Positions 38,449-53,666 of a stretch of DNA of 64,000 nt are shown here, one piece after another. The notes under the pieces are model-generated. The model made no database searches and was not told the origin of the DNA. It saw nothing but the letters and a program-made list of their open reading frames with translations. This DNA comes from Escherichia coli. Lineage in GTDB: Bacteria; Pseudomonadota; Gammaproteobacteria; Enterobacterales; Enterobacteriaceae. Numbering within the stretch: the first letter of the stretch is position 1; each line of letters begins with the position of its first letter. The stretch is from the NCBI RefSeq assembly GCF_022846255.1, contig NZ_AP025682.1. One strand, 5' to 3'. The position numbers and the translations under genes were made by a program.

Positions 38449-39171
38449 TTAAACGATGCGGCAGGCATCGGCTTCCCAGCGGTAACCGACGCCGTAAACG
38501 GCGCGGATAAATGACTGTTCGGCGTCGAGAGATTCCAGCTTGCGGCGCAGGTTTTTAATGTGGCTGTCGATGGTACGGTCAGTTACCACGCGGTAGTCGT
38601 CATAAAGATGGTTCAGCAACTGCTCGCGGGAGAACACTTTTCCTGGTTCATGAGAGAGCGTTTTCAGCAGACGAAATTCTGCAGGCGTCAGGTCAAGCAT
38701 TTTACCGCGCCATGAAGCCTGAAAACGACCTTCGTCGATAATCAACGGGCTTTCAGCATCCTGTTGCTGCAACTCACGCTGCGGTTTGCAACGGCGCAAA
38801 ATGGTTTTGACGCGCGCTACCACTTCCCGTGGGCTGTACGGTTTGCAGATGTAGTCATCTGCGCCAATCTCCAGCCCGAGCAGGCGGTCGATCTCTTCGA
38901 TTTTTGCTGTCACCATCACGATCGGAATGTCAGAAAAACGACGAATCTCCCGACACAACGTCAGGCCATCGGTGCCAGGGAGCATCAGATCCAACAGGAT
39001 CAGATCCGGTGGTGTCTGGCGCACATATGGCAGTACCTGATCGCCGTGGCTGATAAGCGTCGGCGCATAGCTCGCAGCACGCAGATAATCAATGAGTAAC
39101 TGTCCCAGCTTCGGTTCATCTTCCACGATCAAAATACGCGGTGTGTTTTCGTCGATTGGTAACTCGGTCAT
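38449..39171 (-). CDS. baeR: OmpR-family response regulator BaeR
   Basis: 240 aa; receiver domain (ILIVEDEPK ... [10 protein letters not shown]) plus winged-helix C-terminus; overlaps baeS. Confidence 0.95.
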
Positions 39172-40571
39172 ACTTCTCTCTGTAAATCCCGTTCCAGCGG
39201 TAACTCTACTGTAATGCTTACCCCGCCAAAAGGCGAATGGGCAGCAATAATGCGACCATTATGTGCTTCAACAATGTTCAGGCAAATCGCCAGCCCCAGC
39301 CCGGAACCGCCGCTGGCTCGGTTGCGGGAGCCTTCGGTGCGATAAAAACGTTCAAACAATTTTTGTAGCTGATCGTCACTGACGCCCGGCGCGCTGTCGG
39401 CAAAGGTCAGGCGCACCGTTTTGTCGTGCTGCTCGGCAGAGATTATCAGGCTACCGCCGCTGTCAGTGTAGCGCAGGCTGTTTTCCAGTAAGTTATTGAA
39501 TAACTGCATTAAACGGTCGCGATCGCCAAATACGGTAATACTGTCTGGCAGGGAAAATTGCAGTTTCAGGCCACGGCTGGCGAATCGTTCGCGAAATGCG
39601 CCGCCCGCCACTTCCAGCAGTGGGATCAAATCTACCGGTGCTTTTTGATAGGCGAGAGCGCCTTCATCAGACATCGACAACTGATGGAGATCGTCAACCA
39701 GTTTGGTCAGTGTACCGACCTCCGCCTGTAAAGACGCCACCGTCTCCGGCGTGAATTTACGCACGCCATCCTGAATGGCTTCCAGTTCACCGCGCAGCAC
39801 CGCTAATGGCGTACGCAGTTCGTGAGAAATATCGGCCATAAAATCGCGCCGCATTTGCTGGTTTTTCTCCAGCGTGCTGGCAAGCTGGTTGAAGTCTTGC
39901 GCCAGTTTGCCCAATTCATCTTCACTGGTGGGCGTCACGCGAGTAGTGAAATCGCCCGCTGCCAGTTTGTGTGTACCGTCCACCAGTCGTTTGACCGGAG
40001 CCAGCAAACCGCGCGCCAGTGGGAATGTCGCCAGCGCCGCTAACAAGGTAGATAAAGCGACAATCAGCCAACTGGTTTGCCTCTGTTGTCTGTCAAAATT
40101 GATATCGGTATTGCGGGTCAGTCGTTCAACAGGGGAGGCGATCACCGCACCCACTTCCGCCCCATTGACCATAATGGGCCGCCGTGTGCCGTCTGGTGGA
40201 ATCGGTGCTCGCGGGCCAACCAGCACTTTGTTGTTTTGATCAACCACCCAGAATTGCGTGCGCCAACCGTGTGGCGGCATACCGGGGCCGGGCTTATCTT
40301 CGTTGTTATCATGCTCCAGCGAACGTAGGATCTGAAATACAAAGCGATCGTTATTACGCAGGAAGCGCCAGTTCCCGTGCTGGGCGTACTGCTCACCAAG
40401 CGCATCGCCGAGCATTTGCAGCCGTTGTTCATTACCATGCTTGATGTAATCAATAAAGCCACGCTCAAAACTGATACGCACCGCCCAGTGCATACTGATC
40501 AGCAAGACAATGCAGGTGGCGAAAATCGCCAGAAACAGTTTGCCGGTAATACCGGGTCGCCAGAACTTCAT
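39168..40571 (-). CDS. baeS: envelope-stress sensor histidine kinase BaeS
   Basis: 467 aa; two TM segments, HAMP, H-box ISHELRTPL, HATPase_c. Confidence 0.95.
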
Positions 40572-48000: not shown

Positions 48001-48184
48001 CTGGATAAAGCGTGACCACCTGAATGGTTGGATAGTCCACTTCCGGCAGCGCCGAAACGGGCAGGGCGCGATAACCGATAATCCCGGCGAGTAAGATCGC
48101 CACCATCAGCAGCGTGGTGGCGACAGGACGCATAATAAACAGGCGCGACGGGCCGCCTGTGCTGCTCGGGGGTAACACCTGCAT
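45062..48184 (-). CDS. mdtB: RND multidrug efflux pump subunit MdtB
   Basis: 1040 aa RND permease, paralog of MdtC. Confidence 0.95.
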
Positions 48185-49431
48185 CAGGAGCGCGCTCCTT
48201 TTTTCGCGTATTCGCGGCTGGTGGCTTTATCTTCCGGGGTAGTGGCGCTCTGGGCTTCCACGACTTCCACTTTCGCCCCTTCGGTCAGGCGATCAATGCC
48301 GTCCGTCACTACGCGGTCGCCCGCAGAAATACCTGCACGGATCACCACTTTCTGACTGTCCTGAATGCCCGGTGTCACCAGATGTTTGCTGACTTTGTTT
48401 TCGCTATTCAGTACCCAGACAAAATGGCCTTCGTTGCCCATTTGCAGTGCGGCGGTGGGGATCACCACGGCGTTTTGTTCGGTATCGACTAACATGCGAG
48501 CGTTAACAAACTGATTAGGGAAAAGCGCATCATCCTGATTATTAAAGCGAGCTTTCACTTTAATCGTACCGGTAGTGGCATCGATTTGGTTATCGAGACT
48601 TAACAGCGTGCCTTCACTTAACTTCTTCGAGTTGGTGCGATCCCAGGCTTCTACCACCAGCGGTTTTCCGGCTTTTTGCGCCTGTACAACGGTGGCGATA
48701 TCGCTTTCCGGCAGAGTAAAGACCAGATCGATAGGATGCGTCTGGGTGATCACCACAATCCCGGTGGTGTCGCCACTGGAGATTTGGTTACCAACATCAA
48801 CCTGCTTGAGACCAACGCGACCATCAACTGGTGCGGTGATACGGCTCCAGTCGAGTTGCAGCTGTGCGCTGGCGACGCTTGCTTCATCAGCCTTAATGGT
48901 ACCTTCGGTTTCACTGACCAGCGCTTGTTGGGCATCCAGTTCCTGACGAGATACGAGATTGGTTTTTGCCAGTTGTTGATAACGCGCCAGGTCACGGCGG
49001 GCGTTGGCGAGCGTGGCTTTATCTTTTGCCAGTTGGCCCTGGGCTTGTGCTAATGCAACTTTGAACTGGCTTGGGTCAATTTCTGCCAGTAAATCGCCTG
49101 CTTTGACCTGCTGGCCTTCCTGGAAATGTAACGCCATCAGTTGACCGTCCACGCGGCTGCGCACCGTAACAGTATTAGCGGCGGTAATGGTGCCAAGCCC
49201 GGTGAGGTAACGCGGAACAGCCTGTTCTACTGCGGTCGCCGCCTGAACCGGAGCTAATGGGCCGGCACGCATACCACGGCGACCACCCGCTGGCGATTGC
49301 TGCGCTTGTTTCGTCGCCCCAGGGGCTGCACTCTGGGAGTCATTGCGGCCTTGCCAGAACCAGAATGCGGCGATGGCGGCGATAACCACCACGATTACGA
49401 TTACCCAACGGGATTTATAACTGCCTTTCAT
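48184..49431 (-). CDS. mdtA: RND membrane fusion protein MdtA
   Basis: 415 aa from [26 protein letters not shown]; the 464-aa track ORF is an upstream extension. Confidence 0.9.
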
Positions 49432-49475
49432 CGTTAAGAGTTTCTCTTCCTGAAACGTTTCGCGGAATGATACTA

Positions 49476-49493
49476 GTGTAGCCAGCCAATAAG
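49476..49493 (-). promoter_or_regulatory. candidate BaeR box upstream of mdtA
   Basis: Minus strand reads TTTTTCTCCCTTATTGGC, 17/18 match to the published BaeR consensus TTTTTCTCCATDATTGGC (recalled from memory). Confidence 0.4.
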
Positions 49494-49663
49494 GGAGAAA
49501 AATGGAGGAATTATGAAACACTGTCGGGAATCGTCTGAATGACGGGCACATTTGCGAGCACGCATCCAGTAATAACACATGAAACTATTTTATCTACGCG
49601 TTAGCGATAGACTGCTTGCATGGCGAAAGGAGATAAGCCGACGATTTCAGCGGGACGCTGAAA

Positions 49664-49805
49664 CGGAAAAGCCCCTCCCGAGGAAGGGGCCTTAAATAAG
49701 GAAAGGGTCATGATGAAGTGGATCATCATCGTGGTGCTCTTAGTGATTAGCTACCCAGCATACTAAGACTACCAGGGCGGGGGAAACCCCGCTCTACCCT
49801 CACTC
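49664..49805 (-). ncRNA. Sib-family antisense sRNA (antitoxin RNA); boundaries approximate
   Basis: Antisense to the ibs ORF; minus-strand terminator hairpin CCCCTTCC-TC-GGGAGGGG followed by CTTTTCC at about 49664-49690. The 5' end is estimated from the usual Sib length of about 140 nt. Confidence 0.45.
49710..49766 (+). CDS. Ibs-family type I toxin, 18 aa (MMKWIIIVVLLVISYPAY)
   Basis: Short hydrophobic ORF with SD AAGGAAAGGG; Ibs family signature MMK...LLVIS..AY. A or B assignment not attempted. Confidence 0.7.
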   Translation: MMKWIIIVVLLVISYPAY

Positions 49806-49991
49806 CTGAAAGTATGCCTTCACGGTCCAATTGTCAATCCGCAGACTTTGCAGTCTGCGATCCTGCCAGCAAATATTCTTTGCGAGTCGTTACGCAATAA
49901 TCACACTTGAAACTATTTTATCCGCAAGTCAGCGATAGACTGCATACAGGGCGAAAGGAGGTAAGCCGAAGATTTCAGCGGGACGCTGAAA

Positions 49992-50133
49992 CGGGAAAGC
50001 CCCTCCCGAGGAAGGGGCCTTAAATAAGGAAAGGGTCATGATGAAGCTACTCATCATCGTGGTGCTCTTAGTCATTAGCTGGCCAGCTTACTAAGACTAC
50101 CAGGGCGGGGGAAACCCCGCTCTACCCTCACTC
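49992..50133 (-). ncRNA. Sib-family antisense sRNA, second copy; boundaries approximate
   Basis: Same hairpin and terminator, offset by about 328 bp from copy 1. Confidence 0.45.
50038..50094 (+). CDS. Ibs-family type I toxin, 18 aa (MMKLLIIVVLLVISWPAY)
   Basis: Second copy within repeat unit 2; same SD and context. Confidence 0.7.
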   Translation: MMKLLIIVVLLVISWPAY

Positions 50134-50311
50134 CTGAAATTATGTCACTCCGCCCTTAGTGTCAATCGACGGCTCTCCGTTCTTGCGAGGCGAATAGCAA
50201 AATTTTCTGCGCCGCCGGGCCTAATTCTGAAAGTTTCTTCGTTTGCTCTTATTTCATTATTGCAATCGGTATGATACCGGACCTCAATAATTCTCTAAGA
50301 AAGGATTTCTT

Positions 50312-50971
50312 ATGAGCGAACAAATCACGTTTGCCACCAGCGATTTTGCCAGTAACCCGGAACCACGTTGCCCCTGCATTTTGCTGCTGGATGTTTCTGG
50401 CTCGATGAGCGGCAGACCCATTAATGAACTTAACGCCGGATTGGTTACCTTTCGCGATGAGCTGCTTGCCGACCCGCTGGCCTTAAAAAGAGTGGAACTC
50501 GGTATTGTGACGTTCGGCCCAGTGCATGTGGAACAACCCTTTACCAGCGCCGCTAATTTTTTCCCGCCCATCCTGTTTGCCCATGGGGATACACCAATGG
50601 GCGCCGCCATTACCAAAGCCCTGAATATGGTTGAGGAGCGCAAACGTGAGTATCGCGCCAATGGTATTTCCTATTATCGTCCGTGGATTTTCCTGATTAC
50701 CGATGGCGCACCAACCGATGAGTGGCAGGCTGCTGCCAACAAGGTGTTTCAGGGGGAAGAAGATAAGAAGTTTGCCTTCTTTTCCATCGGTGTTCAGGGG
50801 GCGGATATGAAGACGCTGGCCCAAATCAGCGTTCGTCAGCCTTTGCCATTGCAGGGATTACAATTCCGTGAACTGTTTAGCTGGTTATCCAGTTCGCTGC
50901 GTTCGGTTTCCCGCTCCACGCCGGGAACGGAAGTTGTGCTGGAAGCGCCAAAAGGCTGGACGTCAGTGTGA
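50312..50971 (+). CDS. yegL: vWA-domain protein YegL (TerY-like)
   Basis: 219 aa; MIDAS motif DVSGSMSG and downstream ITDGAPTD; 4-bp overlap with the next gene. Confidence 0.9.
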
Positions 50972-51729
50972 GCTGGCGTCTGGTCTATGCATCAACCGTT
51001 GGAACGTCGCACATCAGCGCGGACTTGCCTTGCCAGGATGCCTGCCAGATGCAGGTTGCCTGGTTAAATGACCAGCAGCCATTATTGTCGGTATTTGTCG
51101 CTGATGGCGCAGGCAGTGTCTCGCAGGGTGGCGAAGGTGCGATGCTCGCCGTCAATGAAGCGATGGCTTATATGTCGCAAAAAGTGCAGGGCGGGGAATT
51201 GGGGCTTAATGATGTCCTCGCAACGGACATTGTGCTGACCATTCGTCAGCGACTTTTTGCCGAGGCGGAAGCCAAAGAATTAGCGGTTCGCGATTTTGCC
51301 TGCACGTTTTTGGGATTGATTTCATCAGCTAATGGCACCTTGATTATGCAGATTGGCGATGGCGGCGTGGTGGTAGATTTGGGTCACGGTTTGCAACTGC
51401 CGCTCACGCCGATGGTGGGGGAATATGCCAATATGACGCACTTCATTACCGATGACGATGCTGTTTCCAGACTGGAAACTTACACCAGTACTGAGCGTGC
51501 GCATAAAGTTGCAGCATTTACGGATGGTATTCAGCGACTGGCGTTAAATATGCTGGATAATTCTCCGCATGTGCCTTTCTTTACCCCGTTTTTCAATGGA
51601 CTGGCGTCAGCAACGCAGGAACAACTCGATTTATTACCTGAATTGTTAAAGCAGTTTTTGTCCAGCCCGACGGTAAACGAGCGTACCGATGATGATAAAA
51701 CGTTGGCACTGGCGCTGTGGTTACCATGA
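50968..51729 (+). CDS. pphC: PP2C-like protein phosphatase PphC (YegK)
   Basis: 253 aa; conserved Asp-rich segments (VADGAGS, QIGDGG, FTDG) of PP2C-like phosphatases; overlaps yegI by 13 bp. Confidence 0.9.
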
Positions 51730-53666
51730 AACCCACTTTATATACTGCTACTGGTGAGTGCGTTACGCCTGGCCGTGAACTGGGCAAAGGCGGTGAAGGT
51801 GCGGTTTATGATATCGAGGAGTTTGCCGATAGCGTCGCCAAGATTTATCACACGCCGCCACCCGCCTTAAAACAGGACAAACTTGCCTTTATGGCTGCGA
51901 CAGCTGACGCGCAGTTGTTGAATTATGTCGCCTGGCCGCAGGCAACGCTTCACGGTGGACGAGGCGGAAAAGTTATCGGTTTTATGATGCCAAAAGTTTC
52001 TGGTAAAGAACCGATTCATATGATCTATAGCCCGGCACATCGTCGCCAGAGTTACCCTCATTGTGCGTGGGATTTTCTACTCTATGTTGCGCGCAATATT
52101 GCTTCATCTTTTGCTACTGTTCATGAGCACGGGCACGTCGTGGGTGACGTAAACCAGAACAGCTTTATGGTAGGTCGCGACAGCAAAGTGGTGTTGATTG
52201 ATAGCGACTCCTTTCAGATTAATGCCAATGGTACACTGCATTTATGCGAAGTCGGCGTGTCGCATTTTACGCCGCCAGAGCTGCAAACCATGCCATCATT
52301 TGTCGGCTTTGAACGCACAGAAAATCACGATAATTTTGGCCTTGCGTTGCTGATATTTCACATCTTGTTTGGTGGGCGGCATCCTTATTCCGGTGTACCG
52401 CTTATCTCTGATGCGGGTAATGCGCTGGAGACGGATATTGCCCATTTCCGTTATGCCTACGCGTCAGATAATCAGCGACGTGGTTTAAAACCGCCGCCAC
52501 GATCGATTCCGCTGTCGATGTTACCGGGCGATGTTGAAGCCATGTTTCAGCAGGCATTCACGGAAAGTGGCGTGGCAACCGGGCGTCCGACGGCAAAAGC
52601 GTGGGTAGCGGCACTTGATTTACTACGCCAACAGTTAAAGAAATGTACCGTTTCGGCAATGCATGTTTACCCCGCTCATTTGACTGACTGCCCGTGGTGT
52701 GCGCTGGATAATCAAGGCGTTATCTATTTTATTGATCTCGGCGAAGAGGTCATTACCACCGGCGGTGATTTTGTGCTGGCGAGAGTCTGGGCGATGGTGA
52801 TGGCGTCAGTAGCACCGCCAGCATTGCAATTACCATTACCCGATCATTTCCAACCGACTGGCAGGCCGCTTCCTTTAGGCCTGTTAAGGCGTGAATACAT
52901 CATTCTGATTGAGATCGCACTGTCAGCGTTATCGCTGCTGCTTTGCGGCCTTCAGACAGAACCACGTTATATTATTTTGGTTCCTGTGCTGTCGGCTATC
53001 TGGATTATTGGCAGCCTGACAAGCAAAGCGTACAAAGCAGAAATCCAGCAACGCCGTGAGGCGTTTAATCGTGCGAAAATGGACTATGACCATTTAGTCA
53101 GCCAGATCCAACAGTTGGGCGGGCTGGAAGGTTTTATCGCCAAACGGACGATGCTCGAAAAAATGAAGGACGAAATTCTTGGGTTACCGGAAGAAGAAAA
53201 GCGCGATCTGGCAGCACTTCAGGACACCGCAAGGGAACGGCAGAAGCAGAAGTTTCTGGAGGGATTTTTTATTGATGTTGCCTCTATTCCCGGCGTTGGC
53301 CCTGCGCGTAAAGCGGCGTTACGGTCCTTTGGTATTGAAACAGCAGCGGATGTTACCCGACGGAGCGTTAAGCAAGTGAAAGGTTTTGGTGATCATCTGA
53401 CCCAGGCGGTTATCGACTGGAAAGCGAGCTGTGAACGCCGTTTTTTGTTCAGGCCGAACGAAGCGGTAACGCCTGCAGACAGACAAGCGGTAATGGCAAA
53501 AATGGCCGCCAAACGACATCGGCTGGAATCGGCGCTGACTGTCGGTGCGACAGAGTTGCAGCGATTCCGCCTTCATGCTCCAGCACGGACCATGCCGTTG
53601 ATGGAACCGCTACGTCAGGCGGCAGAAAAACTGGCTCAGGCGCAGGCTGATTTAAGCCGTTGCTGA
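51717..53666 (+). CDS. yegI: atypical membrane-associated Ser/Thr protein kinase YegI
   Basis: 649 aa; Gly-rich loop GKGGEGAVY, Lys in VAKIYH, catalytic-loop-like HVVGDVNQNSF, LIDSDSF; two hydrophobic segments; C-terminal HhH-like IPGVGPARKAALRSFGIETAADV. Confidence 0.9.
   Translation: MVTMKPTLYTATGECVTPGRELGKGGEGAVYDIEEFADSVAKIYHTPPPALKQDKLAFMAATADAQLLNYVAWPQATLHGGRGGKVIGFMMPKVSGKEPIHMIYSPAHRRQSYPHCAWDFLLYVARNIASSFATVHEHGHVVGDVNQNSFMVGRDSKVVLIDSDSFQINANGTLHLCEVGVSHFTPPELQTMPSFVGFERTENHDNFGLALLIFHILFGGRHPYSGVPLISDAGNALETDIAHFRYAYASDNQRRGLKPPPRSIPLSMLPGDVEAMFQQAFTESGVATGRPTAKAWVAALDLLRQQLKKCTVSAMHVYPAHLTDCPWCALDNQGVIYFIDLGEEVITTGGDFVLARVWAMVMASVAPPALQLPLPDHFQPTGRPLPLGLLRREYIILIEIALSALSLLLCGLQTEPRYIILVPVLSAIWIIGSLTSKAYKAEIQQRREAFNRAKMDYDHLVSQIQQLGGLEGFIAKRTMLEKMKDEILGLPEEEKRDLAALQDTARERQKQKFLEGFFIDVASIPGVGPARKAALRSFGIETAADVTRRSVKQVKGFGDHLTQAVIDWKASCERRFLFRPNEAVTPADRQAVMAKMAAKRHRLESALTVGATELQRFRLHAPARTMPLMEPLRQAAEKLAQAQADLSRC

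Follow-up and report, generated by a model that had tools for sequence, protein, structure and literature searches.

Activators of the PhoB/OmpR family bind sites composed of direct repeats, and activation is of the class II type, with the site replacing the -35 element of the promoter. BaeR was reportedly seen by Baranova and Nikaido, in 2002, to shift the promoter of yegM (mdtA) in gels, and the gene is reportedly co-regulated by CpxR. Only four BaeR sites had been reported, those of spy, mdt-bae, acrD and ycaC, according to Choudhary et al. (2020; PMC7657598). The consensus for BaeR, 5'-TTTTTCTCCATDATTGGC-3', comes from Nishino et al. (2005), as quoted by three papers that cite it. In E. 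coli K-12, two BaeR peaks were detected upstream of mdtA by ChIP-exo (Choudhary et al., 2020; PMC7657598, Data Set S2), namely peak_5 at 2153931-2153967, with a signal-to-noise value of 11, and peak_6 at 2153972-2153998, with a value of 15. Deletion of baeR changed the expression of mdtA in 5% ethanol by a log2 value of -4.0 (a fall of about 16-fold), and the values for mdtA, mdtB, mdtC, mdtD and baeS in the deletion strain treated with ethanol ranged from -3.4 to -4.6 (PMC7657598).

We analysed the mdtA promoter in a 64 kb stretch of E. coli DNA, referred to here as the window. The minus strand of the promoter region has the sequence 5'-...TGTTTCATAATTCCTCCATTTTTCTCCCTTATTGGCTGGCTACACTAGTATCATTCCGCGAAACGTTTCAGGAAGAGAAACTCTTAACGATGAAAGGC...-3'. 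Upstream of mdtA, on the same strand and in the same orientation as the gene, lies the sequence TTTTTCTCCCTTATTGGC, which agrees with the consensus TTTTTCTCCATDATTGGC at 17 of 18 positions, the sole mismatch being C for A at position 10. This was the only match in the window even when up to three mismatches were allowed. At the same threshold, 100 shuffled windows contained a mean of 0.16 matches, and at least one match was found in 14 of them. A chance match was ruled out, since the single match in the window precedes a known target gene and is identical in K-12. A preliminary description of this DNA had reported a BaeR box with a 17/18 match, and the box is indeed present on the minus strand; it is the mdtA site defined in the literature, and a BaeR ChIP-exo peak published for identical K-12 sequence encloses it. 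The distance of about 45 bp between box and start codon given there has to be corrected to 53 nt, measured between the 3' end of the box (49485) and the ATG of mdtA (A at 49431), with the centre of the box about 62 nt upstream.

The strain of the window belongs to phylogroup B2 of E. coli. Its mdtA promoter is base-for-base identical to that of K-12, and data obtained in K-12 are therefore applicable here. Alignment to K-12 MG1655 over 220 bp upstream of and into mdtA revealed three SNPs, all of them outside the box, and zero differences between position 49525 and the ATG. A 341-bp query around the site was 100% identical in E. coli ATCC 11775, UM146 and other strains of phylogroup B2, and was matched in 5416 of 5426 complete E. 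coli genomes; the 81-bp core promoter was at least 95% identical in 5416 of the 5426. Downstream of mdtA, the genes mdtB, mdtC and mdtD and then baeS and baeR are all found on the mdtA strand, in the same operon. The three proteins tested, MdtA, BaeR and BaeS, all scored above their NCBIfam equivalog cut-offs (Table 1), and the next-best families for BaeR were CreB, PhoB and OmpR, which places the regulator in the OmpR/PhoB family. Since its last genes, baeS and baeR, encode the regulator that binds the box, the operon regulates itself.

Table 1. Features of the mdtA promoter and its operon, in window coordinates
Feature	Position	Strand	Basis
Published 18-bp BaeR box of mdtA, TTTTTCTCCCTTATTGGC	49502..49485 (K-12 2153945..2153962)	minus	consensus match
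Half-site h1, TTTCAT	49518..49513	minus	in block TTTCATAWTTCCTCCATTTTT; direct repeat, 11 bp upstream of h2
Half-site h2, CTCCAT, family-wide conserved BaeR core	49507..49502	minus	80/80 orthologous promoters
Half-site h3, CTCCCT, core of the 18-mer	49497..49492	minus	10 bp downstream of h2; Escherichia and Citrobacter only
Predicted -10, TACACT	49480..49475	minus	fixed 21-nt spacing from h2; inferred as -10
Alternative -10, TATCAT	49472..49467	minus	5/6 match to TATAAT; in block CTAMACTAGTATCATT
Predicted transcription start, A	49468 (K-12 2153979)	minus	inferred, 7 nt downstream of TACACT; 37-nt leader
Alternative predicted start	49460 (K-12 2153987)	minus	goes with TATCAT; 29-nt leader
Start codon of mdtA, ATG	49431..49429	minus	RefSeq; conserved ATGAAAGGC; upstream frame-breaking indels
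Conserved upstream block CATTCAGACGATTCCCGACAGTG	49541..49519	minus	conservation profile and alignment
Conserved leader block GTTTCAGGAAGAGA	49456..49443	minus	most columns at least 95% conserved in 80 orthologues
mdtA, 415 aa, first gene of mdtABCD-baeSR	48184..49431	minus	RefSeq; NCBIfam MdtA/MuxA equivalog, 724 bits
baeS	39168..40571	minus	ORF; NCBIfam BaeS equivalog, 931 bits
baeR	38449..39171	minus	ORF; NCBIfam BaeR equivalog, 450 bits (cut-off 380)

The ChIP-exo peaks were mapped onto the window by anchoring on the ATG at K-12 2154016, and with a possible offset of 1 nt, the published table being 0-based, peak_5 corresponds to 49516..49480 and peak_6 to 49475..49449. Peak_5 contains the 18-mer and the conserved sequence directly upstream, so that h1 and h2 are covered, and peak_6 covers the -10 and start region. 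The occupancy was recorded in vivo in K-12, a strain other than that of the window, on identical sequence. ChIP-exo cannot tell the contacts of BaeR from those of cross-linked polymerase, and peak_6 is most simply explained by polymerase cross-linked together with BaeR. With +1 placed at 49468, peak_5 extends from -48 to -12 and peak_6 from -7 to +20, which is about where an open complex usually ends.

We consider it very probable that the box is part of an operator from which phosphorylated BaeR activates a sigma-70 promoter of mdtABCD-baeSR, with a start of transcription near 49468. Phosphorylated BaeR would bind the tandem direct repeats at about 49518..49485, in which TTTCAT is followed 11 bp on by CTCCAT, 10 bp further on by CTCCCT, and then by ATTGGC. 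The operator would overlap the position expected for a -35 element, in a promoter without a -35 consensus, and BaeR would recruit RNA polymerase to the -10 element, most likely TACACT. Transcription would then begin at about 49468, so that some 37 nt of leader would precede the ATG. A position upstream of this start is the proper one for an activator site, and a box this close to the ATG is typical of an activator of the OmpR/PhoB type. An anomaly had been suspected in the preliminary description, in the form of either a very short leader or a misassigned start codon or promoter. The start codon is in fact correct, and the predicted leaders of 29-37 nt fall within the preferred range in E. coli of 20-40 nt. 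What the mdtABCD-baeSR promoter contains here is its already known BaeR operator, arranged in the ordinary way, and no anomaly remains. Overlap of the site with the -35 region is the usual situation for activators of the OmpR/PhoB type.

A phylogenetic footprint was obtained from 80 mdtA promoters of Enterobacteriaceae, 77 of them unique; the Salmonella mdtA promoter was neither among these 80 loci nor among the best 120 protein matches. Apart from the gene start, three blocks were nearly invariant, TTTCATAWTTCCTCCATTTTT (49518..49498), CTAMACTAGTATCATT (49481..49466) and GTTTCAGGAWGAGA (49456..49443). The approximately 17 nt between TTTCATAWTTCCTCCATTTTT and CTAMACTAGTATCATT vary freely, and most of the 18-mer falls there. 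The complete 18-mer is kept only in Escherichia and Citrobacter, and unrelated sequence occupies the place of h3 in other genera; the adjacent h1-h2 repeat is found in all 80 orthologues. The conserved part of the operator is thus TTTCAT-N5-CTCCAT (49518..49502), directly upstream of the 18-mer, with spacings of 11 bp between h1 and h2 and 10 bp between h2 and h3. Together with the two bases on its 5' side, h2 follows the pattern [TC][TC]C[TC][TC]CAT in 80/80 promoters and reads TCCTCCAT in 73. The gap from h2 to a TAnAnT hexamer is exactly 21 nt in every one of the 80, with a variable sequence. The composite motif CTCCAY-N21-TANANT occurred once in the window, at the mdtA promoter, against 0.18 occurrences expected. 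This recognition core, conserved across the family and adjoining the 18-mer on its 5' side, had been missed in the preliminary description.

Which of these elements constitutes the operator proper may be read in more than one way. Activation through h1-h2, through h2-h3 or through all three half-sites may each be compatible with the sequence. It is quite plausible, if a little short of probable, that the primary and ancestral operator is TTTCAT-N5-CTCCAT, and that the 18-mer is a lineage-specific third half-site which at most adds affinity. Conservation favours this, as only h1 and h2 are kept in all 80 promoters, and the 3' two-thirds of the 18-mer are replaced outside Escherichia and Citrobacter; to judge from this distribution, CTCCCT and ATTGGC look like a third half-site gained in those two genera. 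The same is indicated by peak_5, which begins at 49516 and covers h1 and h2 as well, and by the invariant CTCCTT-N5-CTCCAC repeat of acrD. On the other side, the 18-mer matches the consensus, itself derived from spy and acrD, at 17 of 18 positions including ATTGGC. Since such a match is far beyond chance, the 18-mer is very likely bound too.

The spy and acrD promoters bear directly on this point. In both, as at mdtA, a core (CTCCAT or CTCCAC) followed by NWTT stands exactly 21 nt from a TAnAnT hexamer, and the core is preceded at a distance of 11 bp by a weaker half-site (TTTCAT in mdtA, CTCCTT in acrD and TTTCTT in spy). The K-12 sequences are CTCCAT-N21-TACACT for spy and CTCCAC-N21-TACAGT for acrD. 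Across three genera the spy promoter retained the N21 geometry, with the hexamer TATACT in Salmonella and TACACT in Citrobacter. Across seven genera the acrD hexamer followed TA[CAG]A[GT]T, with positions 1, 2, 4 and 6 invariant, positions 3 and 5 varying and the spacing constant, a pattern that would be expected of a -10 element. The core in the 21-nt register forms part of the published 18-mer of spy and acrD. At mdtA, by contrast, the 18-mer is shifted 10 bp towards the hexamer, and directly 5' to this 18-mer stands the core that is in register. The 21-nt spacing thus holds for h2 and for the spy and acrD cores. It could well be, with a likelihood not quite reaching one half, that the mdtA box is one helical turn out of register with respect to those of spy and acrD, and that the ancestral operator is YTYCWT-N5-CTCCAY-NWTT, exactly 21 nt from TAnAnT. 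The third half-site would then have been taken as 'the' mdtA box because it carries the ATTGGC tail. If this is true, the BaeR motif in databases should be redefined, and prediction of the regulon could improve.

The choice of TACACT as the -10 hexamer is based on its fixed distance from h2. The corresponding position reads TAAACT in most genera and TAAAAT, a better -10, in Enterobacter sp. JUb54 alone. With the start at 49468, h1 would occupy -50..-45, h2 -39..-34 and h3 -29..-24, and the 18-mer would extend over -34..-17, reaching farther into the spacer than is usual for an activator. A consensus scan identified no TTGACA-like hexamer properly spaced from either candidate -10. It is possible but rather doubtful that TATCAT serves as the -10 instead, with a start near 49460 and a 29-nt leader, or that both hexamers are used. 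TATCAT agrees with TATAAT at five of six positions, against four of six for TACACT, is kept in nearly all orthologues (TATTAT in 5/80), and is covered by peak_6. It would place the 18-mer at -42..-25, with 12 nt between the 18-mer and the -10, similar to the 10 nt of PhoB boxes; a PhoB-like position of this kind also speaks against a merely accessory role for the 18-mer. Against TATCAT, spy and acrD are without a -10-like hexamer at its offset but have TACACT and TACAGT at N21, and a 1-nt insertion between the two hexamers in Entomohabitans leaves N21 intact for TACACT and not for the second hexamer; the TAAAAT of Enterobacter sp. JUb54 likewise weighs in favour of the first hexamer. Both candidate leaders, of 37 and 29 nt, lie inside the 20-40 nt range. 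A proximal start of mdtA transcription was not found in the accessible E. coli data sets of transcription starts. There were no entries for mdtA, spy or acrD in SMRT-Cappable-seq, and the sole mdtA start in the survey of Kim (2012) is 646 nt upstream, in the sib region, with no start for the K. pneumoniae orthologue.

A further reading would have mdtA transcribed from a constitutive promoter, TTCAGA-N18-CATAAT (49539..49510), with a start near 49503 and the box within the leader, or, as a variant, by read-through from SibB; we regard it as highly improbable. The TTCAGA/CATAAT pair does score 9 of 12 matches in the consensus scan, both hexamers lie in conserved sequence, and SibB is encoded on the mdtA strand and ends about 230 nt upstream. 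However, the scan yielded one site where chance alone predicts 1.0, TTCAGA and CATAAT move by 1 nt relative to each other in Klebsiella and Raoultella, and the conservation of CATAAT is accounted for by its overlap with h1 and with the spacer between h1 and h2. Bound at +1..+18, BaeR would act as a repressor, yet it activates mdtA about 16-fold. The survey of Kim (2012) contains no start near 49503, and a terminator-like hairpin (49688..49672) follows SibB.

Between yegL and mdtA, as in K-12, the window encodes two antitoxin RNAs of the Sib type (Rfam SIB_RNA, 137 and 141 bits), at 49695..49837 and 50023..50165, both on the minus strand. Ibs toxin ORFs lie opposite the Sib RNAs, including an ibs ORF at 49710..49766 on the plus strand, and two Ibs toxin genes precede mdtA in RefSeq. 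Upstream of the sib repeats, again as in K-12, the region 50312..53666 (plus strand) encodes yegL (vWA-domain), pphC/yegK (PP2C-type phosphatase) and yegI, a kinase-like ORF of 649 aa.

Two other conserved segments flank the operator and the promoter. The upstream block CATTCAGACGATTCCCGACAGTG overlaps the -35-like TTCAGA of the promoter-like match, which scores no better than chance. It holds a TTCAGAC / TCCNGACAGT repeat that is kept in most of the 80 orthologous promoters, and might represent another site for BaeR or CpxR, or the -35 of a basal promoter. No CpxR box with two or fewer mismatches was found in 49432..49700, and the counts over the whole window were no higher than chance. The nearly invariant leader block GTTTCAGGAAGAGA is probably a distant Shine-Dalgarno-like region. 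Its AGGA, 16 nt ahead of the ATG, is rather remote for a Shine-Dalgarno sequence. The leader block reads AGGATGAGA in many genera, with an out-of-frame ATG.

The annotated start of mdtA is correct. The RefSeq start was identical in a genome of identical sequence, the K-12 record likewise gives a 415-aa protein, and ATGAAAGGC is found at the start in all 80 orthologous loci. From the hexamer to the ATG, the spacer measures 41, 42, 43, 44, 45 or 46 nt depending on the genus, and because these differences are not multiples of three, an upstream extension of the reading frame is broken among the orthologues. Conservation 5' of the ATG is confined to discrete, promoter-like blocks without a codon pattern. 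That mdtA instead starts at the in-frame ATG at 49551, giving a 455-aa product with the box inside the coding sequence, is scarcely credible: the E. coli frame is open back to 49578, and 455-aa protein clusters with thousands of members (P0244 and P0246) are present in databases, but the upstream frame is not conserved, the blocks are not those of codons, RefSeq and K-12 agree on the shorter protein, and the MdtA family profile aligned from residue 4 of the 415-aa form. Conservation argues that the 455-aa form is a mis-annotation. The long form in P0244 and P0246 begins 40 codons upstream (ATG 49551..49549); for K-12, the accession of the protein has reached version 2.

Through this site, the MdtABC-TolC efflux pump and BaeSR itself are induced under envelope stress caused by indole, metals, tannins or ethanol, and the site thus bears on intrinsic tolerance to drugs and bile salts. 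The box itself brings nothing new, since it has been described in K-12 and has the same sequence here. What is added is solely the comparative result, a sharper grammar of BaeR promoters, in which a direct repeat is followed at a fixed 21-nt spacing by a -10 hexamer, and which also yields a specific predicted start of transcription. The refinement of the register relative to the published 18-mer may be new.

Among the systems described, the mdtA (yegM) box of K-12 has the same sequence in the same place, and the site itself is without differences. Hexamer and ATG are 43 nt apart in mdtA, as against 50 nt in acrD and 118 nt in spy. For spy in K-12, Kim (2012) reported a single transcription start, located 215 nt ahead of the ATG between CATA and ATCTCTGCAAAA, which coincides with BaeR ChIP-exo peak_2. 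The published spy 18-mer is positioned between the two ChIP-exo peaks. With the conserved TACACT as the -10, the leader would measure about 111 nt, so that spy may be served by more than one promoter. The acrD repeat and its N21-TAnAnT geometry are invariant in seven genera, K-12 included, yet no BaeR ChIP-exo peak was seen at acrD, and its regulation was called indirect (PMC7657598). In the ycaC-ycaD intergenic region of K-12, neither a match to the 18-mer with up to five mismatches nor a core of the CTCCAY type was present. We therefore dropped ycaC as a fourth reference promoter; it is cited as one of the four reported BaeR binding sites despite having no consensus match.

A similar arrangement occurs in the DzrR box upstream of desAB in Dickeya and Burkholderia (5'-CTCCATC-N2-A-N-CTCCAT-3'), defined by a DNase I footprint, where an OmpR-family activator of an RND efflux operon recognises two CTCCAT repeats with an 11-bp period (PMC10052836). 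DzrR is a different, AdeR-like regulator from other genera, reportedly phosphorylation-independent (PMC10052836), and is tied to BaeR by analogy only. The BaeR half-site CTCCAT differs from the CTGTCAT of PhoB, and a contact of BaeR with sigma region 4 or the alpha-CTD is putative. The pho boxes of PhoB and the tandem repeats of OmpR likewise have a period of 10-11 bp, and abut or overlap the -35 position of promoters without a recognisable -35 hexamer.
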